IMG/VR virus record: IMGVR_UViG_3300017938_000552
Length of the DNA stretch: 64,000 nt
From: an uncultured virus (IMG/VR IMGVR_UViG_3300017938_000552)
Taxonomy: Duplodnaviria; Heunggongvirae; Uroviricota; Caudoviricetes
Strand: one strand, 5' to 3'
In this document: positions 4,381 to 24,438 of the stretch, one piece after another
Layout of the letters: the number at the start of each line of letters is the position of its first letter
Position numbering within the stretch: the stretch's first letter is position 1
The notes under the pieces: model-generated
Seen by the model: only the letters and a program-made list of their open reading frames with translations
Databases searched by the model: none
What the model was told of the DNA's origin: nothing
Translations under genes and position numbers: made by a program

Positions 4381-5275
4381 TTACTTTTTTTCTAATATAG
4401 TTTGATTGTAGACATTAGTAAATATTTTCACACATTTGTTCATATTCATATAATTATTTATAAATGATATACCAGATGTATTAAGTTGTTTTACATTTTC
4501 TAGCTCTCTCATATGTTTATACACCATGTCATAATCGGTGGCATATAAACAATTTGGAAATTTGTATGACCAGATCACATATCTTCCTCTAGCCAATGCC
4601 TCTTGAACCATTTTTGATAAAGCATCATGTTTGGTTATTCTGAGAAGAACAGTTGTTCGAGAATATATTTCATCCATGTCCTCAACATTAACATGACCTA
4701 AATATTCAATATTTGGTGCTTTCAACACATCCCTCTTGCCAAGAATAATAAATTTATATGGCATTGAAACTAACCTTCTCACTATCTCAAGACCATAAAA
4801 ATATTCTCTATTTCCAAAATATACAAGTGCTGTTGGTGTTTCTGGTAATGGACCTATCTTCTTTGCCCTAATATTCCATGATGGTATGGGAGCAAACTCA
4901 GCCACAACCCCCTTTTCTTTTAATTCATTTACTAACCAAAGGTGCATGAACAAGATTTTTATCTATTAATTTAGAACAAATTAACACTATTTTTTTATCC
5001 GAATCCATGACATCTGATCCAATCCAATAAAACAATATTTTTTTACCAATAATCTTAAAAAATACAAATAAAAAAATCCAAAACATGCCCTCTATACCAT
5101 TAAGTTTAGCAGACATAATTTGAACAATATCTGCACTTAACAAATTCTTAATATTTTCTTTAATACCAGTACCTACAAAATTGAAACTCAAATTTGGAAT
5201 ATTACTTAATAATGAGGTTAAACCATATTTTCTTCCTTTCGCTTTTGGATTACTGTATACCAATATTCTAATCAT
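4381..5275 (-). pseudogene. GT-B (GT4-like) glycosyltransferase split by a 1-nt frameshift
   Basis: ORFs 4925..5275 (YWIGSDV) and 4381..4953 (NIEYLGHV, HDALSKMVQEALARGR) join as ...NLVHAPWLVNEL... if one T is removed from CCTTTGG at ~4936-4942. Confidence 0.75.
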
Positions 5276-5301
5276 AATTATCTAGTATAAATTAAGTTTA
5301 C

Positions 5302-5670
5302 TTAAACCTCTTCACCCAGTTCTTCCATAGCTTCCTGTTTCCAATCTCTCTTAGTTATATTACGTTGTGTCCAACTTGTTGGTTTTGCGGCTTCAATCTC
5401 AGACTCAACGTTAACCGAACCACCACGAGAAACCTGTTCCATACGGATGATGTCACGCCTACCACGACCACCGAAACCAACATTTAGGTTTAAGTACCAA
5501 TCCAAGACAGTTGCCCAACTTGGAGAATTCTTAGCCCTGACAGCCGCATAAAGAACAGCCCCCATCTTGTTGTGTTTCAGGACAGTTAGCCTTCTCATAT
5601 CTACACGACCCATTTCTAGGTCGATTGGGTCTGTACCCAACTGTGGTGATAAACTTTCTTGTTCTGCCAT
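5302..5670 (-). CDS. Hypothetical protein in putative morphogenesis cluster
   Basis: 122-aa ORF with GAGGT RBS, co-oriented with membrane proteins. Confidence 0.7.
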   Translation of the reverse strand: MAEQESLSPQLGTDPIDLEMGRVDMRRLTVLKHNKMGAVLYAAVRAKNSPSWATVLDWYLNLNVGFGGRGRRDIIRMEQVSRGGSVNVESEIEAAKPTSWTQRNITKRDWKQEAMEELGEEV

Positions 5671-10420: not shown

Positions 10421-11389
10421 GTGATTGAAATTATGAAGAAAGGAGAGAAGATGTCTGATGAGCAGAAATTAAAAATGAGTGAAACACGTAAACGTAGAGG
10501 TGTTGCATCTGGTGAGAAAAACCCAATGTATGGTAGGTCTGGGATATTAAGCCCTGTGTATGGTAAGTCGCAAACACCAGAGCATAAGAAAAAAATAGGT
10601 GACGCACAAAAAGGTGAAAAAAACCATATGTTTGATAAAAAAGGGACGTTAAATCCTAACTATGGTAAACACCCATCAGAAGCTACAAGAAAAAAACAAA
10701 GTGAAGGAGGAAGGGGCAAACATAGTGGTAAGAATAACCCTATGTGGGGTAAAAAACGCACACCAGAGTGGTGTATACAACACAGTAAGGATATGAAAGG
10801 TAGATTTTCTGGTGAGAAAAATCCATTTTATGGCAAGAAACACACACCAGAGACTATAAAATATTTAAGTGACATTACATCTGGTGAGAACCATCCCCAA
10901 TATGGTAAACATAGATTACCAAATACTGTAAAAAAAATAAGTGAAAAAAATAAAGGCAGACCCTCTCCAATGAAAGGAAATACCTCCCCCATGTTCGGTA
11001 AACATCACACACCAGAGTCAATAATAAAAATGAGTAAATCCCAACAATTACGAACCGACCACAACAAAGGTGGAAATACACCACACACAGTCACCATAGC
11101 CCTCATTAGTAGCCAACTTGAAAGGCTTGGTTGGAAAGTACAAAGCTGGTCTACCACAGGTGAGAGATTTGTTATAATAAACGGACACAGATACTCACCA
11201 GACATCTATGCTACAAGAGGTAATGAAATACTGATAATTGAGGTTGGGGGTTGTGATAATCCAGAAAAACTACCTGATCTTATGACCAAATACGCCATTG
11301 TATTACAAGTACCCAAAATGTCGGTGGAACTCAGACCTATTGATCTTAAAGATTTAGTTAATTGGCAACACTTCAGCCACAACTTTTAA
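10421..11389 (+). CDS. NUMOD3-repeat protein with C-terminal PD-(D/E)xK-like nuclease (homing-endonuclease-like)
   Basis: Many GEKNPMYG/GKKHTPET-type repeats; C-terminal YSPDIYA...IIEVGG. Confidence 0.8.
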   Translation: MIEIMKKGEKMSDEQKLKMSETRKRRGVASGEKNPMYGRSGILSPVYGKSQTPEHKKKIGDAQKGEKNHMFDKKGTLNPNYGKHPSEATRKKQSEGGRGKHSGKNNPMWGKKRTPEWCIQHSKDMKGRFSGEKNPFYGKKHTPETIKYLSDITSGENHPQYGKHRLPNTVKKISEKNKGRPSPMKGNTSPMFGKHHTPESIIKMSKSQQLRTDHNKGGNTPHTVTIALISSQLERLGWKVQSWSTTGERFVIINGHRYSPDIYATRGNEILIIEVGGCDNPEKLPDLMTKYAIVLQVPKMSVELRPIDLKDLVNWQHFSHNF

Positions 11390-12093: not shown

Positions 12094-12240
12094 TTATTTT
12101 GAATGTAGTTTATGAAAATCGTCTAGCTTTAAATCCACCTCATAAATTTGTATGTCCAGCTTCTTGGCAATCTCAGCCGCAGAGAAACCTTCATCATGTA
12201 GCCTCAAAACATCGGCTTCTTTATCCTTTGTCCATATCAT
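12094..12240 (-). CDS. Small helix-turn-helix protein (48 aa)
   Basis: Read by hand: MIWTKDKEADVLRLHDEGFSAAEIAKKLDI... Confidence 0.7.
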   Translation of the reverse strand: MIWTKDKEADVLRLHDEGFSAAEIAKKLDIQIYEVDLKLDDFHKLHSK

Positions 12241-12259
12241 TTTAAAACACACCACTGAC

Positions 12260-12568
12260 TTACTTTACTCTTTCCAACCAACGACACTTGGGGCACTTGA
12301 AATAGTTGTTTGTGTATCGGTATCCTTTGACAGATTTATACACCATGTTTGCCCCACACTTTGGGCAGACCTTTTTTGGTGATAGTTGTTTCTTTGGTCT
12401 GTACTTTTCTCGTTGCTTGATTCTATATTCATCATCCACACCATCTGGATTGGTAATCTTTTGCGGGTATCTCTCACAACCATGCTTTAACTTCTTGTCA
12501 TAGTTGTCATAACATTCACCGCATGGTATTCCACAACGACTATAACCCATAACCTTTTTACTTACCAT
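12260..12568 (-). CDS. Cys-rich Zn-ribbon protein
   Basis: CGIPCGEC, CPKCG...CPKC; start moved to MVSKK. Confidence 0.7.
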   Translation of the reverse strand: MVSKKVMGYSRCGIPCGECYDNYDKKLKHGCERYPQKITNPDGVDDEYRIKQREKYRPKKQLSPKKVCPKCGANMVYKSVKGYRYTNNYFKCPKCRWLERVK

Positions 12569-12728
12569 AGTGTGCCCTTCCTTGTATATAATCTTCAATA
12601 TGCTCTGGATGCTTTGCTACTATATGTCTTCCATATCTGGTTTCTCCCTGTAAGACATCTATGCAATATTTACACTGGATAGGTTTGCTTCCCTTTCCCT
12701 TAACATACTTTCGACCAGTTCTGCCCAT
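12558..12728 (-). CDS. C2H2 zinc-finger protein (56 aa)
   Basis: Read by hand: MGRTGRKYVKGKGSKPIQCKYCIDVLQGETRYGRHIVAKHPEH; same spacing and HPE ending as 4013..4171. Confidence 0.7.
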   Translation of the reverse strand: MGRTGRKYVKGKGSKPIQCKYCIDVLQGETRYGRHIVAKHPEHIEDYIQGRAHYGK

Positions 12729-12771
12729 ACATTATCCAATAAAGTATATGTCAGGTTACTTATAAACTTTT

Positions 12772-13029
12772 CTAGTTCTCATCGGAACTGAATTTACTTG
12801 CACACTCGTCACACATGCCCTGTTTGATATAATAATCCATAAATGGCATTTTTTTGTGACACTCAGAACAGCGTTTGTCTGGAAGTTTAAAATATGAAAG
12901 CATCTCAATGACTGGTTGATACCAGAATTGACCAACATTCACATCGACTTCACCAAGAGCATCCATTAATGACTCACAGGCATGAACATCATGCAGACTT
13001 GGTTTAAATTTTATTTTACGATCCACCAA
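12772..13029 (-). CDS. Zn-finger protein
   Basis: CSEC...CDEC; own TATA box at ~13061-13070. Confidence 0.65.
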   Translation of the reverse strand: MVDRKIKFKPSLHDVHACESLMDALGEVDVNVGQFWYQPVIEMLSYFKLPDKRCSECHKKMPFMDYYIKQGMCDECASKFSSDEN

Positions 13030-13061
13030 TATCTCTCAAAATACACAGCTATCTGTGTTGC

Positions 13062-13340
13062 TTATAAGCCTTTTGTTTTTCGGCTGAGAAATTCCCAACC
13101 ATCCATATTTTTGTCAATCAGGTTAAGCCAACGACCATCGACCCTTGACCAACCAGTACCATAACCAACCTGTATTGTGATGAATGGTTTTCTACCTTTT
13201 ATGATATTATACCTTGCTTCAACACGTGTATGCTTGGGTATGTCTTTGAACTTTTTTAATGTGAGGGCAGTGCCTAGATTTTCATATGTTACCTTTACAA
13301 GTTTGTGATTCTTATAAAAAGAATACTCAGGCATCTTCAA
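13062..13340 (-). CDS. Basic hypothetical protein, last gene of basic operon
   Basis: 92-aa Lys/Arg-rich ORF abutting eS30. Confidence 0.65.
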   Translation of the reverse strand: MKMPEYSFYKNHKLVKVTYENLGTALTLKKFKDIPKHTRVEARYNIIKGRKPFITIQVGYGTGWSRVDGRWLNLIDKNMDGWEFLSRKTKGL

Positions 13341-13580
13341 TCACATTTTATATTCTGTTCTAGTATTTGTATCTTTCGGCTTGTGTGTGAACCTGAAATA
13401 CTTTTCCCTGTTTTTCTTCAACGGACCAGAGTGTTTCTTGAGGTTGGACTTGGCTATTTTCGGTGTTTGATCTCTGACTTTCCCCGCCTTGGTAATTGAA
13501 CCGTGCGTTCCCCGACCACCCTTCTTACCAGAAGATTGCTGTGCCTTTTCTAGCTTTTTATTTAATTTGGTTTCGGACAT
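13341..13580 (-). CDS. rps30e: Ribosomal protein eS30 (S30e) homologue with ~24-aa N-terminal extension
   Basis: THGSITKAGKVRDQTPKI...KKNREKY matches the eS30 signature HGSL[TA]xAGKVRxQTPK[IV]...RNRxxY. Confidence 0.92.
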   Translation of the reverse strand: MSETKLNKKLEKAQQSSGKKGGRGTHGSITKAGKVRDQTPKIAKSNLKKHSGPLKKNREKYFRFTHKPKDTNTRTEYKM

Positions 13581-13768
13581 TACCTCTTACCCCTACCATG
13601 TCCTGTTGGTTCATAACAATCCCCAACCCATTTAACATAATGTATTCCACCATCTTTAGATTCAATCCATATATTACCATTATAAGGGTCTTGATAAACT
13701 GTTCGTTTTATCATTTTACCATTAAAAAAAATATTCTTTTTACCTATTTTTCTTATTTTTTCTATCAT
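13580..13768 (-). CDS. Small basic hypothetical protein
   Basis: 62 aa; TAATG overlap with eS30. Confidence 0.7.
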   Translation of the reverse strand: MIEKIRKIGKKNIFFNGKMIKRTVYQDPYNGNIWIESKDGGIHYVKWVGDCYEPTGHGRGKR

Positions 13769-13966
13769 TTATTTTCCCGTCCTCAGCCACTTATTGTAGT
13801 TTTTGGTTTCCTTGTAGTAAACACCATACCCTTTCTTGGTACGCTTTACCTTTATACCAACATAGGTCTTATGTTTCATAACACCATGCTTGGTTTTTCT
13901 TAGACTCTTTGCATGTTCATCGGCTTCTTTTTTGGTTTCCCAAACATACGCTAATTTATATGACAT
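13769..13966 (-). CDS. Basic microprotein, repeated family member
   Basis: MSYKLAYVWETKKEADEHAKSLRK...KKGYGVYYK; start moved to 13966 (GAGGTGA RBS). Confidence 0.7.
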   Translation of the reverse strand: MSYKLAYVWETKKEADEHAKSLRKTKHGVMKHKTYVGIKVKRTKKGYGVYYKETKNYNKWLRTGK

Positions 13967-13970
13967 TTTT

Positions 13971-14243
13971 TCACCTCTTTTCCCATTCTGCTTTTCCAGT
14001 TTTCTGGTTATATACCTTGGTTGGTCTGTGCCTGTACAATACATAAACCTTGATTCCCTTCTCCTTTGTTGGGAAGGTTTTTACTATGGTTTTGTGCCCA
14101 CGTTTTCTATCAGACTCTGCCCATTCTAGAGCATGTGGTCTGTATGTGCTATGAGATGACATAACCTCATAACGTTTACCTCTGTAGATAATATATTCTG
14201 GAATTTCGAGTTTCATACCGCGTGCAATAATTGTGTGTGTCAT
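13971..14243 (-). CDS. Basic microprotein, repeated family member
   Basis: YRGKRYEV...ALEWAESDRKRGHKTIV...VYVLYRHR. Confidence 0.75.
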   Translation of the reverse strand: MTHTIIARGMKLEIPEYIIYRGKRYEVMSSHSTYRPHALEWAESDRKRGHKTIVKTFPTKEKGIKVYVLYRHRPTKVYNQKTGKAEWEKR

Positions 14244-14359
14244 TTACTTTTTACCACTTTTTTCTTACTCTTTCGTTTTCTGGTTTTTTTCTTCTTAGGA
14301 AATGCCATCCTAAACCCTTTTTTAGCAGAATCTCCAAATGCTTTGAATATCTCTGCCAT
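14240..14359 (-). CDS. 39-aa protamine-like peptide
   Basis: Read by hand: MAEIFKAFGDSAKKGFRMAFPKKKKTRKRKSKKKVVKSK; fills the gap exactly, ATGA overlap. Confidence 0.7.
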   Translation of the reverse strand: MAEIFKAFGDSAKKGFRMAFPKKKKTRKRKSKKKVVKSK

Positions 14360-14360
14360 T

Positions 14361-14540
14361 TTACTTTTCTCTCCAATAAACTACGTATTTATGATCTTCA
14401 ACCACAATACGTGCTAAATCTCCATAATCATGCAAATGTTTTACGCTTTTCTCTGCAAGTTTCCTTGTAGGATATGCTTCATGGAACTTATAAGGCTTTC
14501 CATTAAAATCCTTATATGGAAATTTAGACTCTAGTTTCAT
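14361..14540 (-). CDS. Basic microprotein, repeated family member (59 aa)
   Basis: Read by hand: MKLESKFPYKDFNGKPYKFHEAYPTRKLAEKSVKHLHDYGDLARIVVEDHKYVVYWREK. Confidence 0.75.
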   Translation of the reverse strand: MKLESKFPYKDFNGKPYKFHEAYPTRKLAEKSVKHLHDYGDLARIVVEDHKYVVYWREK

Positions 14541-14541
14541 T

Positions 14542-15054
14542 TTACTTTTTTTCCCTTAAGTTTACTTTCCAAACCTTTACCTTCACAGTCTTTGTTTTAG
14601 CAAGACCAGCACCCATGAAACCATGTGGGAAATATTGGAAAGTCTGATTCTTCCATCCTGCTGGTTTCATTCTTGAGGCTTTTATATAGAAGGCGGGTCC
14701 ACCTGAAGATTGAACAAACCCCCTGTCCCACCAAGGTGCAGGAGATGGGTTGAATGTTACCATGTACTCTGATTTACTTTTACCAATTGCTCCCTCTATA
14801 ACGCCATATGAAGTTGATCTAACAAGCATATCCTGAGAATTGATTGGCTTAACTACATCTCCGGGCATTGGTTTACTTCCACCAATACGCTTTGTCTTTT
14901 TAGAGTCTAAGTATAGTGGGTTTTTCTCCATTTTTTTATAGCTACCCATACGTATACCAAAGCTACCTCTGGTGTGTGGGCTTATCTTTTTCCCACTCTT
15001 TGTCTTATAACCGCTTACAATGTGTCTAAGTGGTGGACTTCTTTTTGTTACCAT
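14542..15054 (-). CDS. Basic protein with HxVxGYxxxxG N-terminal motif
   Basis: RHIVSGYKTKSGKKISPHTRGS, similar to 3587..3892. Confidence 0.75.
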   Translation of the reverse strand: MVTKRSPPLRHIVSGYKTKSGKKISPHTRGSFGIRMGSYKKMEKNPLYLDSKKTKRIGGSKPMPGDVVKPINSQDMLVRSTSYGVIEGAIGKSKSEYMVTFNPSPAPWWDRGFVQSSGGPAFYIKASRMKPAGWKNQTFQYFPHGFMGAGLAKTKTVKVKVWKVNLREKK

Positions 15055-15072
15055 TTTTGTCTTTTCCTCACC

Positions 15073-15276
15073 CTACTTTTTTCTTCTGTTTTTGGAAATG
15101 TATGACTTTTTACCTTCTTGTGCAAGTAGTGTTTTCCAAATATAGTTAGCTTTCCGAGCCTGTGCTGGTTTCAAACGATGTCCAAACAGAATACCATACA
15201 AACCTTCACTTCCTAGATAGTATCTATAATCAGCATCTATAGAAATACCTTTTCTACGAATATACTTTGTTACCAT
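15073..15276 (-). CDS. Basic microprotein
   Basis: MVTKYIRRKG...SKNRRKK; start moved to 15276. Confidence 0.7.
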   Translation of the reverse strand: MVTKYIRRKGISIDADYRYYLGSEGLYGILFGHRLKPAQARKANYIWKTLLAQEGKKSYISKNRRKK

Positions 15277-15278
15277 TT

Positions 15279-15653
15279 TTAGTCTTTTCCTCTCTTCCTT
15301 CTCCAAACACCATATCCGTGTGGATGTTTTATCAGCTTGTAGTTACCCCTTCCATAAATGTCCTTACCCATCTTGACAGCTTGCGTTTTTAGGGGTGCTG
15401 AACCAGCCATCTCAAATCGTGTACCCTTGAGGATACGATCTGTAGTTGAGTGATGAATGTAGATAGCATATACTGTTTCTCTAGCATATGGAATCTTCTT
15501 AATGTAAATCATAGACTCTTTGAAAAGTTTGCGATCTTTACCTATTCTCTTTGCATCTGACATGGACTTTGCGTTCCATTCATGCCTGTAAATTAACCCG
15601 TTATGGGTTACTTCTTTGGGAATCTTCCCACCAGTTTGATATATAAATACCAT
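15279..15653 (-). CDS. Basic protein with two copies of the repeated family domain
   Basis: HNGLIYRH...AKRIGK...VYAIYIH and LKGTRFE...AVKMGK...GYGVWRR; start moved to MVFIY. Confidence 0.7.
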   Translation of the reverse strand: MVFIYQTGGKIPKEVTHNGLIYRHEWNAKSMSDAKRIGKDRKLFKESMIYIKKIPYARETVYAIYIHHSTTDRILKGTRFEMAGSAPLKTQAVKMGKDIYGRGNYKLIKHPHGYGVWRRKRGKD

Positions 15654-15654
15654 T

Positions 15655-15741
15655 TTACTTAGACATCCTCTGCTTTTTTCTTCTTCTAGCTTTCTTTGCC
15701 CTACTTTTGTCACCCTTCCGTGACATTCCTCTATTTTTCAT
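15655..15741 (-). CDS. 28-aa Arg/Lys peptide (eL41-like in size and composition)
   Basis: Read by hand: MKNRGMSRKGDKSRAKKARRRKKQRMSK; tiles exactly between its neighbours. Confidence 0.6.
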   Translation of the reverse strand: MKNRGMSRKGDKSRAKKARRRKKQRMSK

Positions 15742-15743
15742 TA

Positions 15744-15908
15744 TTACTTCTTTCTCCTTGTTTTTTTAACCTTCTTTTTTACTGATTTTATTTTGGGAAT
15801 TGGTATGGGTTTGTTTTTTATGGTAGTTACCTGTAAAACAGGTGATTGTTTTGGCACAAACAACTTATTTAAAGTTGTTGGTTGTGTTGCTAACATACCT
15901 TTTGGCAT
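15744..15908 (-). CDS. 54-aa peptide with poly-basic tail
   Basis: Read by hand: MPKGMLATQPTTLNKLFVPKQ...KSVKKKVKKTRRKK. Confidence 0.7.
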   Translation of the reverse strand: MPKGMLATQPTTLNKLFVPKQSPVLQVTTIKNKPIPIPKIKSVKKKVKKTRRKK

Positions 15909-15910
15909 TT

Positions 15911-16102
15911 TTACTTTTTCCTCCTATATACATCAAATACAGACTTACCATCATCAGTCTTGCGTTCAGCAACGATAGCTTGATATTTTCCAGATTCCAT
16001 AATTTCTATTACCCTAAGTGCTGAGTTTTGTTTTTTTCTGAAAGTGGAATCATATCTGTAGAATTTACGTCTATATGTGGCTGTTAATGGATGATCTTGC
16101 AT
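15911..16102 (-). CDS. Basic microprotein, repeated family member, first gene of operon
   Basis: YRRKFYRY...ALRVIEIMESGKYQAIV...VFDVYRRKK; GAGGGTGA RBS. Confidence 0.75.
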   Translation of the reverse strand: MQDHPLTATYRRKFYRYDSTFRKKQNSALRVIEIMESGKYQAIVAERKTDDGKSVFDVYRRKK

Positions 16103-16174
16103 TTACTTTTTCACCCTCACGTAAATTACATAACGCTTTCCCAATTTAATCAATATAGTATTGTGTTCAGTAGT

Positions 16175-16192
16175 ATTTAAATGTTATGATAT
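16175..16192 (-). promoter_or_regulatory. Class II promoter (ATATCATAACATTTAAAT) driving the basic operon
   Basis: Exact 18-mer also at 52070, 52413 and 52864; contains TTTAAAT TATA box. Confidence 0.8.
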
Positions 16193-16392
16193 AAAAACCA
16201 CGATGAGGTTAATGAAAAATAAGTAAGTAAGCTACAACCAGAGCTACAATAGTAAAAATAACAACCATTACACTTACAGCAATCACGATGCCTTCAATAG
16301 CACTTTTGATAATATCATCAGACATGTTGATCATATATAAAATATATGCAGTTACCTATAAAGTTTGTGGTAATTAATATAAAAAATGGATT

Positions 16393-16713
16393 TTAATCTA
16401 AAACTAGACCTAACAGAACACAGGAACCACAATGTTTCTTGGTATCGTGAGATACCTTACTCCATTTCCAGACAGTGATTTTTCTGTAATGGCTGGATGG
16501 AATTTCTGATCTAACCATCTTACCAGTCGGTACGATGTGACCATACATACTCAGGTATCTAAAGAAACCACCAATACTAAAGGTTTCATTGTCAAGATAC
16601 TGTTCAAGTCCAAGTTCCCTAAAATCATCGGATGTGATTGTAGGTTGATCCTTTGTCTTTGTGTAAAAAACCTTACCCAACAAACTATAGTTGTTTTGAA
16701 TAATCTTATTCAT
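16393..16713 (-). CDS. Putative winged-helix protein
   Basis: ITSDDFRELG...IGGFF...GHIVPTGKMVRSEIPSSHYRKITVW; own promoter at 16741-16760. Confidence 0.55.
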   Translation of the reverse strand: MNKIIQNNYSLLGKVFYTKTKDQPTITSDDFRELGLEQYLDNETFSIGGFFRYLSMYGHIVPTGKMVRSEIPSSHYRKITVWKWSKVSHDTKKHCGSCVLLGLVLD

Positions 16714-19754: not shown

Positions 19755-21122
19755 CTACTGATCTCCCACCTGCTGAGACAGAGATTTTTCGTAACTTTCT
19801 CTACTTAATATTGGGTATGATTTTACCACACGGTCTAACTCAGCCTTGAACCTATAGTTTATGTTATTTTCAATGAGATATGTTATGAGTGTTGGTACAT
19901 ACACTCTGTAAGATTCGAGTTGGAATCCCATATAGTTTGCGACACCAACTATCCAACGGTCAACAAAAGGATGTAGTTGTTTTATGATTTCAAGTGGGTC
20001 TGTATGTCCTATGATCCAAGGCTCAATTGAAACGAGTGTCTTTATTCCCATTTCCTTGGCTTTTTTCAACACCCTAACCTTCTCCGATGGTAAACTAGAA
20101 TTTGGTTCATATTTCTTATATGTTATATCATCCAGAGAGGTTATAGTGAAGCCAACTTCAACATTTTTATACTGAGATATGAGATCAAAATCATCTTCAA
20201 CATCAGACGATTTTGTGAGAATTAATATGTGGTGTTTAGATTTGAGCATAACTTGTAAGACTTCTCTAGCCCATTTCAACGTCTTGTTTAAAGGTTGATA
20301 TGCATCACATGTGGAACAAAAGAAGAAAACTCCGGGTGGAATACCCTCTAGAGCCTTTTCCAAAGCAACCAAATCTAGATTTCGCTTTTTAGGTTCATTC
20401 CACACTTCTACCCACTTGAAACGATCATTCATTAGTTTTGCATAACAGTATGTGCAATTGTGGAAACAGCCCTCATAGATATTGATGCCATAATCACACC
20501 ACTCAACACCACTATCAAAGTTGAATTTTTTTATAAGGTTGTCTTTCTTATCTTTCTCTCCTTTCTCCTTTGTTTTCTTCACTTTTTTATAAGCACCAGA
20601 AATTGATGTTTCACCACTATACATATCTTTTTTAACTTCGTCTGTAGCATTTTCAATAACATACAATGCTCTCTGTGCTGTGGCTGGACTCATACCAACT
20701 TTTTCTGCTAAAAGTTCTCTTGTATTTCCAATTGGTGTATCACTTGATACACCTCTTATATCTACATGTTCTTGGCGTGTCTTTCGTAACCATTCAATAT
20801 AATTTGATTCGACTTTTAATTTTTGTGCTGGCGTGAGTTGCCGTCTTAGAAGATTATCGTTCTTAGCATATTCCATTATTTCCTCAAAATCCTTGAATTC
20901 CTCCAAAATATAAGGAAATTCCTTTCCTAGCTTTGTGGCAAGTGTATGACGTTTATCACCACATACAATCGTACCCTTATACTCTTCAGGTGAATTAGCA
21001 ACAACACCTTTAACCAAAATGCCACGTTTCTGAATATCTTTTTCTAACTCATCATATATTTCTCTTTCATCTAAACCAGCAAACAAACTACGAATTGTTT
21101 GATTAACCTTTAGTTCAATCAT
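19755..21122 (-). CDS. Fusion: ParB-like + HTH + SPL-like radical SAM domain
   Basis: LEKDIQKRG...IVCGDKR, DNLLRRQLT, LAEKVGMSPATAQR; then INIYEGCFHNCTYCYA, STCDAYQP, ILTKS, VSIEP. Confidence 0.85.
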   Translation of the reverse strand: MIELKVNQTIRSLFAGLDEREIYDELEKDIQKRGILVKGVVANSPEEYKGTIVCGDKRHTLATKLGKEFPYILEEFKDFEEIMEYAKNDNLLRRQLTPAQKLKVESNYIEWLRKTRQEHVDIRGVSSDTPIGNTRELLAEKVGMSPATAQRALYVIENATDEVKKDMYSGETSISGAYKKVKKTKEKGEKDKKDNLIKKFNFDSGVEWCDYGINIYEGCFHNCTYCYAKLMNDRFKWVEVWNEPKKRNLDLVALEKALEGIPPGVFFFCSTCDAYQPLNKTLKWAREVLQVMLKSKHHILILTKSSDVEDDFDLISQYKNVEVGFTITSLDDITYKKYEPNSSLPSEKVRVLKKAKEMGIKTLVSIEPWIIGHTDPLEIIKQLHPFVDRWIVGVANYMGFQLESYRVYVPTLITYLIENNINYRFKAELDRVVKSYPILSRESYEKSLSQQVGDQ

Positions 21123-22305: not shown

Positions 22306-22669
22306 TTTTAGACACCACGAATTAATTTATGTTTTTTGATACTCATCAACAACCAAATAAGCCAAACTCTCTGATTCAGGACATCTCTCGCAATATCGGA
22401 GATGTTTATTCACAATTTTCCACTTATGACCAAGTATTAAACATACTATATTCATTCCCACACACTCTTCCCAGTTATATCATCTAATGTAGGATATATT
22501 ACAGTGATATAAAAACCTTCCGATATTAGTAGTTATCTTATATAAATATAATATAATTCTGGGGTTTCTACTCCATCTACGCTTCCACTTTCTACTCCTA
22601 TTGTATGATATAACCTATAAACCGAAACACTTTTATATAAGTTCGGTATTTTCATATACGGTAGAAAAC

Positions 22670-23479
<810 letters not shown>

Positions 23480-23580: not shown

Positions 23581-24438
23581 ATGTTTAACAAACTAAGTTT
23601 AGGAATGTTTATTATACTTATACTAGGCGTAATGTCTCTGGGTTTAGCTTCAGCTACACCATCACCTACGATCATGTTGAATCCATCTACAGGTGTGACA
23701 ACAACAATTATGGGTTCTGGATTCCAAGCCAACCAGACTATCAAAATATATTGGAACACAACACAGATGGTTACAATTCCATATAACATCACCTCTGACT
23801 CTCTGGGTGGTTTTGTATGCATGGTCACTGCTCTAGATCAAATGGGTGGGAACTTTACAATTACTGCTGTAGATACTGCCCTCACTTCTGATACAACTTC
23901 AGCAAACTTCACCGTGCCTATTCTAAAAGGTGTTACAGGTTCTAACGGTACAAATGGATCAACATGGTATAGTAGTGCTACAATACCAAATGTAAATTCA
24001 ACAGGTGTAAATGGTGATTTCTGCCTCTATACAGGAAATTCAACTGTTTATGAGAAAATATCTGGTTCATGGGTTTTCACAGCAAACATTAGAGGATTAA
24101 TAGGTAGAACTGGTGCTACAGGTGCTAGAGGTGCAACAGGAGCCACCGGAGCCAAAGGTGCTACTGGTACAACTGGACCTGTTGGACCAATAGGTGTTAC
24201 AGGAACTACAGGAACAATAGGTAAAACTGGTCCTATTGGTGAAACGGGTGCTACGGGTTTACAAGGACCAAAAGGTGACACAGGCACAACAGGTTCAATA
24301 GGAGCAAAGGGTGACACAGGTGCTACAGGGGCTACGGGTGAAAATGCAGACTTAACCTTAGTATATGCCTCTCTAGTATTGGGTGCTGGGGCTATAATCG
24401 GTGTACTCTACCTAAACCACAGAGAAAATGGATATTAA
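23581..24438 (+). CDS. Membrane-anchored collagen-like protein 2 with Ig-like N-terminal domain
   Basis: Signal peptide, beta-rich domain with many NxT/S sequons, GSTWY...GVNGDF motif, Gly-X-Y run, C-terminal TM. Confidence 0.9.

Follow-up and report, generated by a model that had tools for sequence, protein, structure and literature searches.

Ribosomal protein eS30 is, according to Bourgeois et al. (2025; PMC11698992), one of three small-subunit proteins that eukaryotes have in common with TACK/Asgard archaea alone, and no archaeal role is yet assigned to it there. A gene for such a protein lies among orphan genes in the 64,000-nucleotide stretch of DNA analysed here, listed as viral in IMG/VR (the window), which raises the question of whether the product is a true eS30 and, if so, what its altered N-terminus would do to the ribosome of an archaeal host.

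The eS30 homologue and its N-terminal extension

The gene is an intact minus-strand reading frame (Table 1). Its coordinates had been given exactly in an earlier note on this DNA, and the core quoted there, HGSITKAGKVRDQTPKI, corresponds to residues 26–42. Comparison of the 79-residue product with the Pfam profile PF04758 (Ribosomal_S30), the check proposed for the earlier assignment to eS30, gave a score of 41.1 bits (E = 2e-10) against a gathering cut-off of 27, with ORF residues 25–66 aligned to profile positions 2–44 of 58; the assignment was confirmed. At E ≤ 0.01, a phmmer search of the PDB gave 65 distinct chain sequences of eS30 or FUBI-eS30, among them eS30 from S. solfataricus (9fhl_e, E = 2.8e-6, residues 25–67 on 3–44 of 52). 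The archaeal S30e equivalog model NCBIfam NF006817 gave 48 bits, under its cut-off of 75. As the Pfam cut-off was passed and eS30 chains in the PDB were matched, while the equivalog cut-off was missed, the ORF is, by sequence comparison, a genuine but divergent eS30 homologue.

The core of the protein contains the pattern HGS-x2-KAGKVR-x2-TPK followed by the distal Pro and Arg. The AF2 model of the ORF had pLDDT values of 80–87 at residues 31–70, with a helix at residues 53–66; a Foldseek search of this model against the PDB gave no match at E ≤ 0.001, the top rows being eS30 chains with E > 3. The C-terminal tail had been called diverged, which proved overstated, since the alignment with a Bathyarchaeota eS30 (L008) runs to residue 74 with 56% identity over residues 22–74.

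The extra N-terminal arm claimed earlier is real: 25 residues with a net charge of +5 lie ahead of His26, and Met1 is the sole ATG, GTG or TTG in the open frame upstream of that histidine. AF2 gave this head a pLDDT of only about 50, with a short low-confidence helix at residues 4–13. No Pfam domain was matched in the 25 residues, and they contain no ubiquitin-like domain.

The head was compared with those of cellular archaeal eS30 proteins, using the 80 best loci of at least 600 stretches from a species-representative genome collection. These loci include Bathyarchaeia, Thermoprotei, Nitrososphaerota, Methanomethylicia and Asgard archaea. In all 80 the histidine lies 3–4 residues from the start (MPTHGS, MPSHGS or MPGSHGS), and a Gly-x-Gly-Thr/Ser-His junction or a basic extension was present in none of them (0/80). 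The window eS30 does not have the short head, defined as His at position 4–5 with Pro2; Gly-Thr stands for Pro-Thr before the histidine, and the order is a Gly-Gly pair, three further residues and then His.

A separate observation concerns the start codons of the cellular genes. The codon at the start position was ATG, GTG or TTG in 61 of the 80 best genome loci and another codon (ATA, TTA, ACG and others) in 19. Among the matches listed, ATA stood three places before His in 6 of 80 genome loci and in 21 of 80 metagenome loci; further codons at the start position were ACG, ATT, TTA, CTG and GTA, especially in Bathyarchaeia and Nitrososphaerota. This codon usage suggests non-canonical initiation of cellular eS30.

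Table 1. Coordinates of the long eS30 gene, its neighbours and other features of the carrier element (window positions unless a contig is named).
Feature	Location	Strand	Details	Evidence
Long eS30 gene	13341..13580	(-)	intact, 79 codons + stop, ATG start	ORF listing, Pfam PF04758
Basic N-terminal extension ending in GGRGT before His26	13506..13580	(-)	codons 1-25	
eS30 core HGS..KAGKVR..TPK..GP..NR and C-terminal helix	13383..13505	(-)	codons 26-66	Pfam match, AF2
Purine-rich SD-like stretch before eS30 start	13581..13596	(-)	TAATG stop/start overlap	sequence reading
Upstream neighbour	13580..13768	(-)	62-aa orphan ORF, stop overlaps eS30 start	no Pfam/PHROG family
Downstream neighbour	13062..13340	(-)	92-aa orphan ORF, starts right after eS30 stop	no Pfam/PHROG family
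Packed same-strand array of small orphan genes	12094..16713	(-)	eS30 internal	ORF maps, gap statistics
NUMOD3 homing endonucleases	window 10421-11389; L090 14108-14962; L090 19564-20280	(+); (+); (-)		
ParB-N-like + DUF5131/radical-SAM fusion	19755-21122	(-)	455 aa	PHROG 13321 on C-terminal part
Adjacent collagen-triple-helix repeat proteins	22601-23479, 23581-24438	(+)		PHROG 'tail fibre' from repeats alone
Sugar/glycosylation cluster	L096 12015-20497, L180 10714-20101, L182 10744-13507		about 25 kb, left of window	

Family, selection and host lineage

Twenty relatives of the window protein were found in a collection of 5.8 billion proteins, all of them metagenomic, 63–98 residues long and carrying PF04758. 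The heads of the resulting 21 sequences, window included, are 12–31 residues long with net charges of +1 to +10, and the GGRGT-His junction is present in 18. Identity within the family falls to about 40% while the residues that define eS30 stay invariant, these being H26, G27, K31, A32, G33, K34, V35, R36, T39, P53 and R58 in all 21 sequences. Some relatives had already been labelled 'ribosomal protein S30' by database pipelines. When 1.84 billion cluster representatives were searched exhaustively with HMMER, 43 clusters were obtained at E ≤ 1e-3, comprising 27 long forms, 14 canonical archaeal forms and 2 eukaryote-like forms, with a GxG[TS]-His junction in 22 of the 27 long-form clusters. 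The share of long forms, 27 of 43, indicates that long eS30 is a diverse family and not a one-off. A metagenome scan returned at least 596 stretches, and in five short contigs with long forms among the matches listed (L098, L108, L113, L152 and L160) all neighbours of the gene are orphans. Two metagenomic homologues, one long-headed and one normal (P0018 and P0042), bear a C-terminal four-cysteine addition resembling a zinc ribbon.

The invariance of the core bears on whether the protein is still ribosomal. A very basic protein that lies among other small basic orphan proteins in a non-ribosomal viral genome context, and that misses the NCBIfam equivalog cut-off, might have been repurposed as a small non-ribosomal protein that binds DNA or RNA, with genome condensation or regulation as conceivable tasks. 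This is unlikely, however, as the eS30-defining residues are invariant throughout a family of such low identity, and a core so conserved is better explained by fit to the same rRNA pocket than by generic nucleic-acid binding.

A natural variant of the gene allowed selection to be estimated. One DNA run (X19) contains a contig identical to the window and also a 590-nt contig, of depth 3.9, that matches only positions 13364–13580 and differs from the window at 36 of 217 nt. Third codon positions account for 21 of the 29 listed differences. The variant has 19 synonymous and 5 non-synonymous codon changes, giving a Nei-Gojobori dN/dS of about 0.05, a value derived from one low-depth contig and from 29 of the 36 differences, seven near the ends being unlisted. 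Head codons 14–24 carry 4 synonymous changes and 1 non-synonymous change. Each of the five replacements also occurs in an independent metagenomic protein (P0001), and they are therefore not assembly errors. Upstream of the start codon the variant contig is wholly unlike the window, showing that eS30 is conserved and its neighbourhood is not. On these codon changes, long eS30 is under purifying selection, extension included.

The earlier note had taken the gene as a pointer to the host lineage, and both markers examined do point to a TACK host, with their best matches in Bathyarchaeia. Among the matches listed, the best cellular eS30 sequences were from Bathyarchaeia, with 56–62% identity over the core. 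The archaeal SAM synthetase of the element gave 343 bits (45% identity) against a Bathyarchaeota genome and 280 bits (42%) against a Desulfurococcales genome, with 224–237 bits (39–43%) for Methanomethylicia, Asgard and Nitrososphaerota; its best identity among 101 sampled Bathyarchaeia genomes was 48%. The host assignment is nevertheless weak, because none of these genomes exceeds 48% identity in the synthetase and the comparison was confined to TACK/Asgard genomes. The whole stretch was found in peat and wetland DNA runs; as every one of these is a possible source of this DNA, the finding describes its habitat only. The 24 runs listed include no RNA run, and contigs of 102–116 kb are present among them. 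From these sequence matches the host is most likely a member of the Bathyarchaeia or a related TACK archaeon of peat and wetland. An eS30 tree of 108 rows and 53 columns grouped 19 long forms with no cellular member (SH-aLRT 84); the sister group or donor lineage of this main long clade was not recovered, and the other long forms scatter among cellular groups.

The carrier element

The window contains about 140–166 small ORFs, mostly on the minus strand, and is about 90% ORF-covered. The stop/start overlap with the preceding ORF and the abutting start of the next one place eS30 inside a packed same-strand array. Across the window, 62 of the 108 same-strand gaps do not exceed 30 nt. SD-like 4-mers were found upstream of 53 of 140 ORFs compared with 23.9 ± 4.6 at random places. 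With such short gaps and an excess of SD-like motifs, coupled or SD-led translation looks common; the very short leaders that had been claimed for many genes here were not borne out by these counts. Paralogy tests among the small neighbours of eS30 gave weak results (E = 0.15 and 0.011), the latter a BLASTP value for small basic orphans at 13769–14243 (-) beside eS30, which are at most weakly paralogous. For a 91-aa ORF within the same interval an internal Met is the probable start, and from there it would no longer overlap the following gene.

The Pfam cut-off was reached by only 11 of the 139 window ORFs of 59 aa or more, these being NUMOD3, Dam, an N6_N4 methylase, two radical SAM proteins (one of them with ParB-N and DUF5131), two collagen-repeat proteins, NADAR, DUF7768, DUF2695 and ThyX. 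Comparison of 135 window ORFs with PHROGs added a nucleoside deoxyribosyltransferase and a repair exonuclease. No other ribosomal protein was found among these 139 ORFs and 42 further, mostly small ORFs, in agreement with the orphan surroundings free of a ribosomal protein operon described previously. No tRNA was detected in the window or in the stretch to its left, and no Rfam family, rRNA included, in the 64-kb window.

Five IMG/VR contigs of 38–82 kb carry a 100% identical eS30. One of these five, of 81,992 nt, allowed the sequence to be followed for about 49 kb past the left end of the window, and the walk to the right of the window end found no relative in IMG/VR. The sequence inspected, the window together with L090, L096, L180, L182 and L197, amounts to about 113 kb. 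The leftward stretch has an even GC content of 0.28–0.38 and encodes two large orphan ORFs of 1160 and 1420 aa, three more NUMOD3 endonucleases (four in the element), a primase-like ORF, two clamp-loader subunits, a Cas4-like nuclease and a dCMP deaminase. Its glycan cluster (Table 1) encodes a GHMP kinase, a SIS-like protein, a transaldolase, three GT2 enzymes, epimerases, a DegT aminotransferase, a UDP-GlcNAc 2-epimerase, an STT3-like transferase and many methyltransferases, and is followed by the archaeal SAM synthetase (PF01941); this synthetase and the STT3-like transferase are archaeal signals in the element. By its gene content the cluster is a possible virus-encoded glycosylation pathway.

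The mobile character of the element is better established than its class. Comparison of window ORFs and 78 leftward ORFs with Pfam and PHROGs revealed neither capsid nor portal nor terminase in the roughly 113 kb, and Terminase_6N had no match in an IMG/VR record of 59,210 nt. In the ESM Atlas the 1420-aa ORF had no usable match, and the 1160-aa ORF matched only hypothetical proteins of Uroviricota with scores below 0.9. The 59,210-nt record is classed as 'provirus' with a CheckV completeness of 33%, from which a genome near 180 kb is inferred. By coordinates this record stops immediately before the glycan cluster, some 7 kb to the left of the window. As other IMG/VR contigs span the cluster and extend to the genes for clamp loader, primase and dCMP deaminase, the 'provirus' edge may reflect trimming of a host-looking block and not an integration site.

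The element is clearly archaeal and mobile and is probably a large virus; lacking a recognised capsid, portal or terminase, it may also be a giant plasmid or Borg-like element. The IMG/VR listing and the virus-like content make the viral setting of the earlier note likely, although none of the three types of virion gene was recognised in about 113 kb. The note also stands in that its HMM match is significant and that in the same 113 kb no tRNA, rRNA or housekeeping operon points to a host chromosome.

Two other IMG/VR contigs, of 76.7 and 136 kb, encode a short-headed eS30 in orphan-rich one-strand arrays. One of them (L006) also encodes TBP (13860–14381) and NrdD, and the other (L007) TFIIB (4707–5594), UDG, RNase H and an intein-bearing methylase. 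As judged from these genes, the two contigs would supply basal transcription factors of their own (TBP or TFIIB).

Proposed function and comparison with known systems

The position of eS30 on the ribosome suggests where an extended head would act. In the S. solfataricus structure reported by Bourgeois et al. (2025; PMC11698992), eS30 sits within the mRNA entry channel, where it touches h16, and its Pro2 is packed on h44 (G1448/A1449) beside the A site; the same account describes contacts of the eukaryotic eS30 tail with eIF1A, A-site tRNA and eEF2. According to Shao et al. (2016; PMC5119991), the conserved histidine of eS30 extends into the space between the backbone of the anticodon and the decoding bases in their flipped state. 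Both accounts agree with the earlier description of eS30 as a TACK/Asgard/eukaryote protein with its N-terminus at the A site.

The favoured reading, held at a probability of about 0.5, is that the gene encodes a functional long eS30 on an archaeal element of about 180 kb, likely a TACK virus, and that this protein retunes the host 30S subunit. The viral eS30 retains the histidine and the core, the part by which eS30 binds 16S rRNA at the entry channel for mRNA, and a 25-residue lysine-rich arm on a flexible GGRGT hinge replaces the short Met-Pro-Thr/Ser head. During infection the viral protein would be built or exchanged into the host 30S at the eS30 site. The arm would then lie in or next to the A site and the mRNA entry region, the place of action of aIF1A, A-site tRNA and aEF2, and initiation or decoding might be biased to viral mRNAs or ribosomes kept working after host shut-off. 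More tentatively, long eS30 may be a ribosome-specialising subunit with which a whole family of large archaeal viruses reprograms initiation or decoding in TACK hosts, for instance through recruitment of aIF1A or through the hold on the mRNA beyond its start codon.

The conserved hinge can also be read as a processing site. In that case the head would be cut off after Gly-Gly, leaving a near-normal eS30 that the virus supplies when host synthesis stops. The GGRGT-His junction is kept in 18 of 21 members, and the best PDB alignments enter the C-terminus of FUBI (viral ..KKGGRGTHGS, FUBI ..RMLGGKVHGS), although this likeness comprises a few glycine-rich residues and may be chance. The eukaryotic FUBI-eS30 precursor is reported to be cleaved after GG (PMC8354635), and the equivalent cut would leave three residues before His, like Asgard eS30 (MPGSHGS); the viral head, however, is about 20 residues and not a ubiquitin-like domain, nor did the inspected element yield a protease of the JAMM, Ulp or USP type. 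The rest of the head is basic and under purifying selection, which would be needless for a mere leader, making a cleaved pro-protein decidedly unlikely.

A 25-residue arm at the A site could also block translation instead of tuning it. Cellular Pro2 is described as packing tightly on h44 at the A site (PMC11698992), and uncleaved N-terminal fusions of eS30 are reported to harm human 40S maturation (PMC8354635), so that an arm plugging the A site might shut down or hibernate host translation or block subunit maturation. Such a plug is nonetheless quite improbable in a virus that depends on the same ribosomes. The flexible Gly-rich hinge suggests that the arm can swing aside, and other virus-borne ribosomal proteins are thought, according to Mizuno et al. 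(2019; PMC6375957), to favour viral translation. Finally, the 'provirus' label, the cellular-looking 25-kb glycosylation cluster with its SAM synthetase and the lack of recognised virion genes in about 113 kb would suit a host chromosome or integrated island carrying the cell's own or a second eS30, but this is highly improbable given that the same 113 kb contain no tRNA, rRNA or housekeeping operon, that so few window ORFs reach the Pfam cut-off, that contigs of uniform GC continue beyond the end of the 'provirus' record and that this head occurs in 0 of the 80 best cellular loci.

A probable virus family in which the eS30 core is retained and precisely the decoding-site tip is rebuilt suggests that translation is controlled at this tip. 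The long forms are natural variants for testing by S. solfataricus 30S reconstitution and cryo-EM, and eS30 would serve as a compact marker linking large uncultured viruses to eS30-bearing hosts.

The earlier note knew of no archaeal virus with eS30, and none has come to light in publications: searches of the main text of articles found no report. A tblastn search with eS30 against 50,697 GenBank phage and virus records likewise gave no match, so that the search of virus databases proposed earlier succeeded in IMG/VR, with its five contigs, and not in the GenBank phage collection. Mizuno et al. (2019; PMC6375957) list eS30 for a single case, the fau insert carried in antisense by a murine retrovirus, which is likewise mentioned in PMC11499249. 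Virus-borne ribosomal proteins as such are already known. L21e of Hafunaviridae was called the first ribosomal protein of archaeal viruses by Liu et al. (2021; PMC8651126), Duan et al. (2023; PMC10541130) describe bL19 in Kunpengvirus of Bathyarchaeia and name only L21e and bL19 for archaeal viruses, and a 2026 provirus survey lists S6e, L15, L15e and L30 (PMC13573593). The new features are a different protein, a different host domain and a rebuilt functional tip.

Long eS30 resembles Hafunaviridae L21e and Kunpengvirus bL19 in being one ribosomal protein homologue on an archaeal virus, and Kunpengvirus shares the presumed host class, Bathyarchaeia. L21e and bL19 are large-subunit proteins, however, and neither was described with an added extension at a functional site; long eS30 extends the very short list of such proteins from archaeal viruses to one of the small subunit, located at a functional site. 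Compared with cellular archaeal eS30 (e.g. 9fhl chain e), the viral form has the same core motifs and a predicted C-terminal helix, and its tail resembles the Bathyarchaeia copies. The cellular proteins are about 52–65 residues long with 3–4 residues before His, whereas the viral protein is 79 residues long with 25, and the proline that packs on h44 is replaced by glycine of the GGRGT hinge. The viral gene also differs in lying on a mobile element away from ribosomal genes and in scoring below the NCBI equivalog cut-off.

The eukaryotic parallel is FUBI-eS30 (FAU) of holozoans, in which an N-terminal addition is likewise joined by Gly-Gly a few residues before His (PMC8354635), and FUBI-eS30 chains gave the best-scoring PDB alignments of the window protein. 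FUBI is a 74-aa ubiquitin fold, whereas the viral addition is about 20 basic, low-complexity residues; two residues separate GG from His in FUBI-eS30 and three in the viral protein, for which no processing enzyme was found in the element. Removal of FUBI is described as necessary for 40S maturation, which non-cleavable FUBI-eS30 impairs in human cells (PMC8354635). If long eS30 is a ribosome-specialising subunit, it would offer a test case set up by nature for the question of why eukaryotic eS30 is made as a fusion whose N-terminal part can be removed.

The phage proteins bS21 and bL12, as presented by Mizuno et al. (2019; PMC6375957), are likewise encoded by a single small ribosomal protein gene in a large virus-like genome, and they share purifying selection and a presumed incorporation into host ribosomes. 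They differ from long eS30 in the protein itself, in its site (mRNA entry channel and A site for eS30) and in the domain of the host. As a ribosome-specialising subunit, long eS30 would correspond in archaea to phage bS21, with its site of action at the other end of the mRNA channel.
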